From the IMG/VR virus record IMGVR_UViG_2737471830_000002: 33,074 nucleotides of DNA; one strand, given 5' to 3'. Position numbers and translations under genes: made by a program. How positions within the stretch are numbered: position 1 is the stretch's first letter; each line of letters opens with the position of its first letter. The notes below the pieces were generated by a model that saw nothing but the letters and a program-made list of their open reading frames with translations, had not been told where the DNA came from and ran no database searches. This stretch comes from a virus (Duplodnaviria > Heunggongvirae > Uroviricota > Caudoviricetes). Shown here one piece after another: positions 16,642 through 24,249 of this stretch.

Positions 16642-17172
16642 TCACACCATTCCGGGCAAATACATTTGCACTTCATTTGCCGCTCTCTGACGTGCAACAT
16701 GAAGCAATCTTTTTCGCCCACCAACGCCCCACTTAGCCATTTGGCTTGCGCACTGGCTTATCGCTTTGGTTTCAGTATTGATGATGTGATCGATTCTATT
16801 CAGACGGGACATTGCGCCAACGCCGAGACGGACAACCGTTTTGAAAACTTCATAAACTTCGATTTCAAATTCCGGCTTAATCCATGCTGCATATCTGATT
16901 GCCAGAAGTTCAACACCCCACACACCTGGTTCTGCACCACCTTTGATTATTTTAAGTGGTTGAATTTGTTCCAAAGTGCTTTTTTGCACTTTGGCCTCCA
17001 GTGCTTTTATGAAGCGTTTTATCTGCGCGCTACGCAAAAACTGGCTTGGGCGCTGTTGCTCTGTAGCCTCTCCATTTGCAACTGCTGCTGCATGGAGATC
17101 GTTTAAGTTGTAGCGTCCATCCTCATCAACACGAACGGACACACCATTGACAATAACTGTTGGGTACTTCAT
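16642..17172 (-). CDS. KilA-N domain protein
   Basis: N-terminus VIVNGVSVRVDEDGRYNLNDLHAAA is typical of KilA-N/APSES-type domains; 176 aa. Confidence 0.6.
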   Translation of the reverse strand: MKYPTVIVNGVSVRVDEDGRYNLNDLHAAAVANGEATEQQRPSQFLRSAQIKRFIKALEAKVQKSTLEQIQPLKIIKGGAEPGVWGVELLAIRYAAWIKPEFEIEVYEVFKTVVRLGVGAMSRLNRIDHIINTETKAISQCASQMAKWGVGGRKRLLHVARQRAANEVQMYLPGMV

Positions 17173-19834: not shown

Positions 19835-20193
19835 ACGTTCTCCAGTTCGGTGATTTTTATTCCAAGCCTTCCGCCTGGTACTTTCACACCACGAATTACG
19901 CGAATGTCATCGAATTGCTCGTCGTCTTCCGCAAATCCGGCGTGGATAAGGGAGTCGAGTAAACCTTTCAGGATGTTATCGAGGTCGCGGCGGCGGGAGT
20001 CTGGAACGTCTGCGATGACTTTGATGCGGAGTCGTGATTTGGTGAAAATGTCTAACTTAAGTTGGCGGATGATTTGCTGAACGTCTTTTCGGTATTTCTG
20101 GCCTTTATCGCTGATGTAGTATTGGCTTCCCCGTCTTCGCCAGTAGGTATTCACCGATGGCGGGTATGGAAGCACAAACTGATATTCGTTCAT
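19831..20193 (-). CDS. rusA: RusA-family Holliday junction resolvase
   Basis: 120 aa; LPYPPSVN...DSRRRDLDNILKGLLDSL...GGRLGIKITE matches the RusA catalytic core. Confidence 0.8.
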   Translation of the reverse strand: MNEYQFVLPYPPSVNTYWRRRGSQYYISDKGQKYRKDVQQIIRQLKLDIFTKSRLRIKVIADVPDSRRRDLDNILKGLLDSLIHAGFAEDDEQFDDIRVIRGVKVPGGRLGIKITELENV

Positions 20194-20480
20194 GACTTAA
20201 TCTTCCCCTCCTTCAGCAGTATCGCCTGCGTCCTGATCACGCCTTCGAGGTGGTAAAGTCTGGCGTCTTTGTTGTCGAGGTTATGGGTGCGTCGGTCGAT
20301 TTCATCGTGACACGCGCTACAAGCCCATGCGCCGATCAGGTCGTCAGGCTTCATTCCCGTTCCGCAAATTCCAGCCATCCGGTAATGTGCCAGAACTGTA
20401 GTTTCAGGATTGCCATTGCATACGCCGTAAATACGTACCTGGCATTCTCTGCCGCGTGCTTCTTTGCGTAGGTTAGCCAT
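20190..20480 (-). CDS. YbcO-like (DUF1364) protein
   Basis: 96 aa, Cys-rich; lies immediately upstream of rusA as ybcO does in the DLP12 prophage. Confidence 0.55.
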   Translation of the reverse strand: MANLRKEARGRECQVRIYGVCNGNPETTVLAHYRMAGICGTGMKPDDLIGAWACSACHDEIDRRTHNLDNKDARLYHLEGVIRTQAILLKEGKIKS

Positions 20481-21202
20481 TAAGCAGCCTCCCCTGTTAC
20501 TTTCAGCATTCCGTTATCGAGAAGCTTTCTGGTCAGCCACTGTTGACCACGCCCGGTGATTTTTGTGGTGAACGATATCTGTATTCCGTGATTTGTGTTG
20601 ACCGCTGTTTCTTTCACTGTGAAATAGCCGCGATCCATATATTCCTGCATTGGCACATTGCGCCGGGAACCTGAAGCAATAAGGATTTTGTGATCGCGCA
20701 TCCATGCAAACAGTTTGTTTGGACCAATACCAACAACCTTTGCATAGTTTCCAATCAAAATTCCGCTGGCCTCGCCAACGCGATCGGCAAACTCAACTTT
20801 AGGTGCGGCAATTGCGAGCTGGTTTTCCAGTTGCATTTTCTGCTCAGCAAGATCAGCAGCAAGGCGCAACGCTTCTGGTAGCGTTTTGGGGATATTAACC
20901 GCAGTTTCTTCAAGCTCTCGCCAACGGTCAACAAGACGAGCGGTGAATTCCGGCGACAACTGGGCAACAACGACAATACTGTCTCGCTTACCTTGTTCGC
21001 CTTCGAAGACGTAATGCTCGTACTGAACATTGAACCCTAAGTTATTGATTCTTTCGAAAACCTCAATTTGAGGAAGCCGGATAACACCATTTTTAGCCAG
21101 CGTTTCGATGGTACGCTTCACATTGTCATGACGCTTACCAACCAACTCAGCGATTTCAATGCTTGTCATTTTGATGGCATTGCCATTTATTAACTCATTC
21201 AT
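20480..21202 (-). CDS. Rha/Roi-like phage regulatory protein with antirepressor (KilA-C/ANT) C-terminal domain
   Basis: 240 aa; N-terminal HTH-like segment MTSIEIAELVGKRHDNVKRTIETLAK; located in the nin region where roi sits in HK022/HK97. Confidence 0.6.
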   Translation of the reverse strand: MNELINGNAIKMTSIEIAELVGKRHDNVKRTIETLAKNGVIRLPQIEVFERINNLGFNVQYEHYVFEGEQGKRDSIVVVAQLSPEFTARLVDRWRELEETAVNIPKTLPEALRLAADLAEQKMQLENQLAIAAPKVEFADRVGEASGILIGNYAKVVGIGPNKLFAWMRDHKILIASGSRRNVPMQEYMDRGYFTVKETAVNTNHGIQISFTTKITGRGQQWLTRKLLDNGMLKVTGEAA

Positions 21203-21365
21203 CGTCTTCTTCCTCGTACATTGAGCTATTCGGATCGCTCATCAGTTCTGCGCAGCAGTGCTCACACACGTGAACTTCCAGCACATGCAGCTTCTGACCG
21301 CAGTTAGCGCACGTTAAAGCCCGCTCGACGCTTTCTTGTTCGTAACTTCGATTTGGGTCAATCAC
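21195..21365 (-). CDS. ninF: NinF-like zinc-ribbon protein
   Basis: [35 protein letters not shown] with CxxC...CxxCC; likely GTG start at 21365 overlapping the ninE stop (ORF track extends to 21407). Confidence 0.6.
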
Positions 21366-21544
21366 CTTGTATTCCTCGCACGATGTCTTAGCCACCGGAT
21401 ATCCCACAGGTGAGCCGTGTAGTTGAAGGTTTTTACGTCAGATTCTTTTGGGATTGGCTTGCGTTTATTTCTGGAGCGTTTCGTTGGAAGGTATTTGCAG
21501 TTTTCGCAGATGATGTCGGTGATACTTCGTCACTGTCGTCTCAT
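21362..21544 (-). pseudogene. ninE: ninE-like gene with in-frame TGA at codon 5
   Basis: ATG at 21544 overlaps the ninB stop (ATGA); reads MRRQ, TGA at 21532..21530, then 55 sense codons ([55 protein letters not shown]) ending in a stop overlapping ninF. Confidence 0.55.
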
Positions 21545-21997: not shown

Positions 21998-22028
21998 AAA
22001 TAAAAAGGCCTGCGATTACCAGCAGGCC
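21998..22028 (-). terminator. tR2-like intrinsic terminator between helicase and ninB
   Basis: Minus-strand hairpin AGGCCTGC-tggtaatc-GCAGGCCT followed by TTTTTATTT. Confidence 0.6.
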
Positions 22029-22054
22029 TGTTATTAGCTCAGTGATGTAGATGG

Positions 22055-23431: not shown

Positions 23432-24249
23432 GCAATCCCCCTGTCTGCAAACTTCCCTTCCCGAACTCCCGTTAACGAGTCTTCCCTCAGCAGGTAATCA
23501 AAATCAGCCGTCCAGCCCGTGTCGTTGTCTCCGAAGTAAAACGGCTTGGCCTGATGCACAAACGCCCTGACATACGCTCTGAAACCGTCCACGTTTGGCG
23601 TTTTCAGTTGCGGGATGATTTTCTTCAGGCGGCGTTTGCGTTTCTCGTTGACCGCAACAGCGTGTGGCAGTCTGTCACCGACTTCGGTGTTGTAGGCGTT
23701 CAGGAAGGATTCGTAGTCGATTCGTTCTGCCTTGCGACGTTCAGGTTTAACCTGCCCATCGCCGCCCCCGTTAGGGGGTAAGGGGGTATTTGTATTTATT
23801 GTCTTTTGTATATTGTCTTTTGTGTTTAGCTGACTTGGCTTATACCCATTAGCTGACTTGGCTAATGTTTTATTAGCTGTTTTAGCTAATGTTAAGCTGT
23901 CCTGGCTAATCCACTGCGAAACCACCTTGTTCACTCCGATTTTCACGCCATCAGCAATGAGGAATTTACGCTCAATAAGCTGGCGCTTGGCAGCGCAAAC
24001 ATGAGTGTGATGAATACCTGTCATGGCTGCTATCTGCGTGTTTGTGAGTCGATCCATCGGCTTATTGAATCCGTATGTCTTGCGCATGATAGCGAGCATC
24101 ACCTTCAACTGCCGGACGGTTAAATCAGCCATCAGCAGACTGTCGGTAATCTCGTTAGCAACGCGCATGAAACCATCTTCGGTATCTGCCACGCGATGCT
24201 CCACGACCTCCAGTTGAGGCCTGTAATCAGCTAACTTAACGACGCCCAT
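23428..24249 (-). CDS. Replication initiation protein (P22 gp18 / lambda O-like)
   Basis: 273 aa; N-terminal HTH region; ori iterons embedded mid-gene; precedes the helicase with ATGA overlap. Confidence 0.75.
23770..23910. repeat. Putative replication origin: iterons plus AT-rich stretch inside the initiator gene
   Basis: Direct repeats TTAGCTGACTTGGCT x2, TTGTCTTTTGT x2, GGGGGTA x2, GGCTAAT x2 and an AT-rich run. Confidence 0.5.

Follow-up and report, generated by a model that had tools for sequence, protein, structure and literature searches.

Sequence and domain analysis of roi in a P22-like phage, with a candidate operator of the Roi protein inside its own gene

The DNA analysed here, IMG/VR virus record IMGVR_UViG_2737471830_000002 (33,074 nucleotides (nt), hereafter called the window), belongs as a whole to a P22-like (Lederbergvirus-type) phage or prophage close to HZ41 and IME10. 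The element under study is an open reading frame (ORF) of 240 amino acids (aa) on its minus strand. The original prediction had described this ORF as a Rha/Roi-like regulator of the nin region, with an N-terminal DNA-binding-like segment and a C-terminal region of KilA-C character; its target was given as unknown, and a part in modulating lysogeny or in partly substituting for a missing ant gene was suggested. The ORF is present and initiated by ATG, and its proposed name proved apt: its DNA is 97.9% identical to the roi gene of HK620, annotated there as “DNA-binding protein Roi”, and the encoded protein is 88% identical to HK022 Roi (240 of 241 aa, E 2e-157). By sequence, the ORF is roi, a delayed-early gene already known from the nin region of lambdoid phages; its annotation in HK022, HK620 and Shiga toxin (Stx) phages goes back more than 20 years. 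As an ordinary gene call this changes nothing; the part worth following up is a helix-operator cassette within the gene, in which the codons of the predicted recognition helix are followed by a 25-bp dyad that is a likely operator for the N-terminal domain of Roi itself (Table 1).

The gene is found between the replication gene P and the antiterminator gene Q, in an operon of the order P (DnaB-type), ninB, ninF, roi, ybcO, rusA, ninH and Q, where the placement of RusA, NinH and Q was taken from the gene order common to the window and HK620. The location in the nin region is confirmed by the NinF and YbcO neighbours, whose order is also shared with HK620. The start of roi overlaps the stop of ninF by 8 nt (ATGAATGA), one base is common to the TAA stop of roi and the ATG of ybcO, and GAGGA is found 5' of the roi ATG; these overlaps are tight operon packing, typical of nin genes. 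Because a tR2-like terminator is located upstream of ninB, roi is assigned to the N-dependent delayed-early PR transcript, and Roi would thus be made only after repression has been lifted.

Table 1. Features of roi and of its surroundings, in window coordinates
Feature	Position	Strand	Basis or remark
roi coding sequence, 240 aa, stop included	20480..21202	-	ORF list and sequence; ATG start
N-terminal Rha-type winged-helix DNA-binding domain, aa 12-99	20906..21169	-	Pfam PF09669 and AlphaFold2 model
Variable “specificity cassette”, aa 22-63 (recognition helix and wing)	21014..21139	-	Alignments A1 and A2, allele tables
Predicted recognition-helix codons, aa 25-37, HDNVKRTIETLAK	21092..21130	-	AlphaFold2 model; residues co-vary with dyad core
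25-bp dyad, putative Roi operator	21055..21079		Core CCTCAAaTTGAGG at 21061-21073; centre 21067 = roi nt 136
Integration host factor consensus AATCAATAACTTA (WATCAANNNNTTR), encoding I-N-N-L	21038..21050	-	10 bp from dyad core
Long inter-domain helix, aa 108-141	20780..20881	-	AlphaFold2 model, low confidence
C-terminal ANT/KilAC domain, aa 126-228	20519..20827	-	Pfam PF03374
ninF, next gene upstream	21195..21407	-	Pfam NinF; ORF coordinates
ybcO/DUF1364, next gene downstream	20190..20480	-	Pfam YbcO, 150 bits
tR2-like intrinsic terminator, 5' of ninB	22006..22029	-	Terminator scan; HK620 annotated tR2 at equivalent place
PR'-like promoter, after Q	18983-18955 (listed high to low)		Found in this analysis

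In Roi, a long helix links a Rha-type winged-helix domain at the N-terminus to a KilAC (ANT) domain at the C-terminus. Domain searches bore out both halves of the architecture originally proposed: in Pfam, Phage_pRha (PF09669) scored 35.4 bits (gathering cut-off 29.9) and ANT/KilAC (PF03374) 112.5 bits (gathering threshold 25.3, E 1.6e-32). Weak helix-turn-helix (HTH) matches (HTH_Crp_2, HTH_20) were also reported by Pfam at aa 10-47, and PHROG_63, named “anti-repressor Ant”, was matched with an E value of 3.5e-99. The NCBIfam model TIGR02681 (Rha family) remained below its cut-off (17.7 vs 45.95 bits), with a match restricted to aa 12-36. Neither P22_AR_N nor P22_AR_C was reported by Pfam in Roi at E values up to 1, a PDB sequence search with Roi gave no match at E values up to 10, and PADLOC gave no defence-system match. 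For the AlphaFold2 (AF2) model, an alignment of 128 diverse sequences led to a mean predicted local distance difference test (pLDDT) score of 73.6, and a shallow alignment of 23 sequences to 36.8. The model comprises a strand (aa 11-13), helices at 14-21 and 25-37 and wing strands at 45-52 and 58-67, that is, an HTH at aa 14-37 followed by a beta-hairpin wing at 45-67; the pLDDT is ~80-89 for these elements and in both domains. The inter-domain helix is, in this model, a possible dimerisation element.

Near-identical genes are widespread. The roi DNA of the window is 97.5-98.8% identical to the versions in HK620, Gally/LF82 and many Stx phages, and a matching gene was found in 219 phage records and in 1040 of 5426 complete E. 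coli genomes. Their labels are either “DNA-binding protein Roi” (HK620, Stx phage 86, P27, PA28 and others) or, from automatic pipelines, “anti-repressor Ant”. The latter label, on a protein found in about one fifth of the complete E. coli genomes, invites wrong inferences about lysogeny control; the sequence evidence points instead to a site-specific DNA-binding protein that would target its own gene. Longer Roi entries also exist in the databases (P0001 and P0002, 304 aa; P0006 and P0007, 294 aa); two of them are N-terminally extended and two pair a NinB match (PF05772) with KilAC, and these entries may be fusions or gene-calling artefacts. Insertions of IS629 in roi are tolerated in Stx phages (PMC4587872). 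In viral contig L141, codon 22 of roi is fused in frame to ybcO and almost all of roi is deleted, and in contig L190 roi is broken after codon 24 and followed by stop codons. Given these insertions and natural lesions, roi appears dispensable.

Comparison of the window gene with HK022 roi showed that the differences are confined to nt 63-190 (aa 22-63), the remainder being ~99% identical. Among roi genes that are otherwise ~95-99% identical (120 close homologues, ~200 loci), this segment occurs as at least 8 alleles. In the AF2 model the variable segment covers the wing as well as the recognition helix. The KilAC half hardly varies from allele to allele and therefore cannot set specificity. 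In every allele a palindrome is centred at roi nt 136, each time with a different sequence: CCTCAAaTTGAGG in the window and HK620, CCTGCAtTGCAGG in allele C, CTGCAtTGCAG in HK022, CCCCCAaTGGGGG in allele G, CCCCCAaTGGTGG in allele B and CCGCCAaTGGCTG in allele E. The core is an exact palindrome in the window, and a weaker dyad symmetry reaches 12 bp per side. When arms of 6 bp were considered, 90.9% of the cells paired, against 26-42% with a slid partner, and three pairs change on both sides; the centre at nt 136 was the top outlier of 1107 centre/spacer combinations (0.90, for a mean of 0.26 and a standard deviation of 0.12). With arms of 12 bp and 15 distinct sequences, changes on both sides were found in 9 of the 12 pairs, and none of 500 shuffles equalled the observed value on any of five measures. 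We infer that helix and dyad move together as a mosaic cassette of ~130 bp and that each allele would recognise its own gene. The original prediction had left the target of the protein unspecified; this can be narrowed, the best candidate DNA target being the dyad inside roi, which we consider likely to be the operator of Roi's own N-terminal domain.

The consensus for integration host factor (IHF) that accompanies the dyad is one of just 2 matches in the 33-kb window, and is also present in HK022 roi and P22 rha. Only 2 of 53 distant homologues have such a consensus beside the dyad, which indicates that the IHF site is specific to the enterobacterial roi/rha group. Another palindrome between the dyad and the IHF site, TTTTCGAAAA, was rejected as not conserved, being found in alleles A, B and C only. 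A search of the window for further copies of the dyad returned a sole other match with 2 mismatches, which is at chance level (0.97 expected); there is thus no evidence for an action of Roi at OR, OL or PR'. This relative of the dyad core, CCTCCAGTTGAGG at 24207-24219 (+), is situated at the 5' end of an O-like replication gene.

The analysis was extended to distant homologues using the protein of Acinetobacter phage phiAC-1 as a query, with which 120 diverse proteins (52-62% identical to the query except for the three closest, and 27-45% identical to the Roi of the window; alignment A6) and 80 diverse viral loci (45-61% identical to the phiAC-1 protein) were collected. The position homologous to roi nt 136 was defined as the first base of the second codon after the conserved Pro44. 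A dyad of 10+1+10 bp at this position was the best of the whole gene in 71 of 79 loci (46 of 53 distinct sequences), where the chance that the best dyad falls there is ~1.3% per gene. It was also found at the homologous position in phiAC-1 itself, Aeromonas phage 51, a Vibrio prophage and gp112 of ICP1; in the latter (L295 280-1074, with nrdD downstream), the top intragenic dyad, AAACTTACCCCA G TGGGGGAAGTTA, lies exactly at this place.

Across these proteins the dyad core follows the residues of the recognition helix. The helix of the window, KRHDNV(K/L)RTIE, is found with the core CCTCAA/TTGAGG even in proteins that are ~40% identical overall; SRHD(K/H)VK(Q/R)S goes with CCCCCA/TGGGGG, SRHDSVKRT with CCACCA/TGGTGG, and SRH(D/S)DVKRS with CCGCCA/TGGCGG, while the helices SRHDNVKTS, SRPDNVKIS and SRHSNVKVS share the core CTGC(A/G)/TGCAG. 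In four helix groups, the commonest codon reached a frequency of at least 90% solely in the dyad codons, whereas equally conserved codons of the helix were not fixed; this freezing of synonymous sites at the dyad codons indicates selection on the nucleic acid itself.

Roi is reportedly an HTH protein that binds inside its own gene, next to a closely linked IHF site, and IHF is said to stabilise this binding; lytic growth in IHF mutants is reportedly inhibited by Roi, whose C-terminal half is said to resemble P1 Ant1 and KilA. According to the title of Henthorn & Friedman 1995, rha products are likewise inhibitory in IHF mutants. The explanation that we favour would combine these elements as follows. 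Roi would bind, probably as a dimer and through its N-terminal recognition helix, to the ~25-bp dyad in its own coding sequence, directly 3' of the recognition-helix codons and 10 bp from the IHF site. The resulting Roi-IHF complex would limit roi expression, for example as a roadblock or by auto-repression, and would so keep the dose of the KilAC domain low; that domain would be an effector aimed at the host (at SOS/RecA or cell division, to judge from characterised relatives) rather than at the CI of the phage itself (25120-25836). In a host lacking IHF, Roi would then be present in excess or in the wrong place, and the inhibition by Roi and Rha in IHF mutants would be accounted for. As a whole, this account of a self-gene-binding Roi which, with IHF, limits a KilAC effector seems to us somewhat more probable than its negation. 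That the Roi-IHF complex limits roi expression, and that harmful excess of Roi follows from IHF loss, is put forward tentatively and may well prove wrong; a host-directed role of KilAC, which is drawn from analogy, is the more doubtful of the two.

In a wider reading, Rha-KilAC genes may be self-targeting modules, in which a cassette of ~130 bp encodes the helix and wing together with the cognate 25-bp operator, ~40 nt further downstream in the same frame. Specificity and target would then shift together by recombination, and simple correspondences between helix residues and bases would extend beyond E. coli prophages, to phages of Acinetobacter and to ICP1, a virulent phage of Vibrio. Through the cassette, the dose of a host-directed KilAC effector would be controlled, or the effector would be tethered to the phage genome, and the “antirepressor” annotation of this large family would be largely a misnomer. 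For all these parts taken jointly (recombination, correspondences, gating or tethering of KilAC, and misnomer), we put the chances slightly short of even. To our knowledge, which was not checked against Clerget & Boccard 1996 on this point, the helix-operator cassette has not been described family-wide. It amounts to a natural set of matched protein/operator pairs, which makes both the Roi/Rha-IHF phenotype and the function of KilAC testable, and these pairs may also serve as orthogonal winged-helix/operator pairs.

Several observations weigh against a Roi that binds its own gene. In the window, nt 146 of roi (21057) is T and not C, so that codon 50 reads TTC (Phe) where most genes of allele A (the HK620 type) have TCC (Ser); this change, shared by ~7 of roughly 100 allele-A loci, weakens the dyad by removing one outer pair (CGG...CCG becomes CGG...TCG). 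In allele F the outer arms pair, but the inner core is degenerate, with 3 of 6 pairs. The geometry of the half-sites is unusual: within the 13-bp core, one central base is all that separates the arms. No clear dyad stands at the homologous place in P22 rha or in the Jersey-type homologue of phage Ent3 (in P22 rha, L292 39575-40180, the best nearby dyad pairs at 8 of 10 positions with a spacer of 2-4 nt), and the feature is therefore not general to all Rha-domain proteins. As helix and dyad are ~40 nt apart and inherited as one block, their correlation is partly linkage, a concern that the synonymous-site test answers only in part. Finally, autoregulation and the target of KilAC are both extrapolated from distant relatives (A118 gp42 is 32% identical), and the mapped HK022 Roi footprint need not coincide with the dyad.

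The dyad itself could be read in two other ways. It might be an mRNA hairpin, a DNA cruciform or a recombination hotspot marking a mosaic boundary, and not an operator; covariation alone cannot tell RNA from DNA symmetry, and in alleles G and E the 70-nt region folds significantly better than its shuffles (z -4.0 and -2.1). The other five of the seven alleles fold no better than shuffles, however, and a centre of 1 nt is impossible as an RNA loop. Among the mismatches in the dyad, A.C (49) is not rarer than G.T (35), and pairing is bipartite, with two strongly paired stretches (positions 2-6 and 9-11, counted from the centre) flanking a weak gap at 7-8. The core moreover tracks the recognition-helix residues across proteins that are ~40% identical, which a sequence-independent hairpin would not need. 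Pairing, mismatches and folding together favour a double-stranded DNA site with two contacts per half-site over a hairpin in sense-strand RNA; on the folding and mismatch results an RNA hairpin was rejected as the main explanation, and we regard this group of readings as highly improbable. Alternatively, the Roi-IHF complex could act as a timer or roadblock for the late genes, standing in the way of transcripts from PR, or of antisense ones arising in the Q region, and thereby setting the level of Q. This would suit the position of roi upstream of Q in the same operon, as well as the antisense transcripts of Gally, a close relative, which begin at Q and reach roi in macrophages (PMC9928086). 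The dyad is nevertheless conserved despite quite different downstream genes, such as nrdD in ICP1, and both the IS629 insertions in roi of Stx phages (PMC4587872) and the natural roi-ybcO fusion of L141 speak against such a role, which we hold to be quite improbable.

Two further readings concern the KilAC domain. Were Roi a true antirepressor, KilAC would bind and inactivate CI-type repressors, those of its own phage or of heteroimmune prophages, and replace the lost Ant of immI. The Pfam and PHROG names read “antirepressor”, P1 Ant1 has the same domain (PMC9043618), and the window lacks ant, as originally stated, yet retains mnt. In Stx-type loci, an antirepressor gene with ORF6N and P22_AR_C domains replaces ninF directly upstream of roi (L084 1746-2426, L085 1722-2426), showing that Ant and Roi co-occur in one operon; a dedicated antirepressor gene beside roi in such loci was also reported (PMC3430580). 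Together with the lack of both P22 Ant domains in Roi, this tells against the proposal that Roi modulates CI repression or partly stands in for the missing ant. Roi is further present in HK022, full-length Rha+KilAC relatives occur in the virulent phage ICP1, and a protein encoded in the PR transcript past a tR2-like terminator would be made once repression is already lifted. HK620 is also without ant, with only immI remnants, and Roi is described there merely as a DNA-binding protein; the exact function of the KilAC and AntA/B domains is still unclear according to the AriS study (PMC9043618). An antirepressor role is on these grounds rather improbable. The other reading is that of a dual-function regulator like AriS, of which the N-terminus tunes phage genes and KilAC damps the host SOS response, probably via RecA; it is compatible with the explanation favoured above, for which it would name the effector step. 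In Listeria, the KilAC domain of AriS suffices to inhibit the SOS response, probably at RecA (PMC9043618), and E. coli stops growing and forms filaments when it makes just the KilA-type C-terminus of phi11 Gp07 (PMC5944126). Members of the AriS family have KilAC at the C-terminus and an AntA/B, Bro-N or pRha domain at the N-terminus (PMC9043618), an arrangement to which the pRha and KilAC domains of Roi conform, and the KilAC of Roi is 32% identical to that of A118 gp42 over 117 aa (E 2e-16). Such an identity does not guarantee the same target, though, and the demonstration in Listeria was dependent on over-expression, native levels leaving SOS transcription unchanged (PMC9043618). We consider a role of this kind in E. 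coli unlikely.

Of the known systems that come closest, HK022 Roi, the member studied by experiment (Clerget & Boccard 1996, J Bacteriol 178:4077), is near-identical (~98%) in its first 21 aa and at aa 64-240, is likewise encoded between the replication genes and Q, and shares the IHF consensus and the position of the dyad. It carries another allele of aa 22-63, with the helix SRHSNVKVSIDRL against KRHDNVKRTIETL in the window and the dyad core CTGCAtTGCAG against CCTCAAaTTGAGG, so that the DNA specificity is probably different. HK620, Gally/LF82 and many Stx phages have allele A in a ninF-roi-ybcO/ninG context. The Rha proteins of P22 and phi80 share the Phage_pRha N-terminus and a KRH..V helix motif, and P22 rha includes an EKINNLG segment whose codons spell the IHF consensus AATCAATAACTTA; unlike Roi, P22 Rha is without KilAC and is encoded in the late region after the lysis genes, with no clear dyad. 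AriS (A118 gp42) of the Listeria comK phages is similarly a two-domain regulator with a C-terminal KilAC, and pRha + KilAC proteins are listed in its family (PMC9043618), whereas its own N-terminus is of the AntA/AntB type and its host is Gram-positive. With P22 Ant the likeness is limited to the functional label “antirepressor” in annotation: the two proteins belong to unrelated folds and families (P22_AR_N/P22_AR_C vs pRha/KilAC), and of the immI regulators of P22 ant, namely Mnt, Arc and the sar antisense RNA, the window keeps only mnt.

The Mnt-like gene (1298-1591, +) encodes an Arc-like ribbon-helix-helix domain and a Mnt C-terminal domain; it is an orphan remnant of immI and the sole gene between the tailspike (1-1257) and gene 16, where no arc or ant was found. 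A lone mnt without ant was also seen in HK620 and Gally, and in macrophages the mnt of the Gally prophage is reportedly raised 40-fold (PMC9928086). The position that rha occupies in P22, between lysis genes and small terminase, is taken in the window by a gene for a KilA-N protein of 176 aa (16642-17172, -), and KilA-N and KilAC are thus on separate proteins in this phage. The tailspike-like ORF (1-1257, -) is only 418 aa long; its head-binding domain (aa 17-129) is of the P22 type, its receptor-binding part is short, and the window begins exactly at the stop codon of this ORF.

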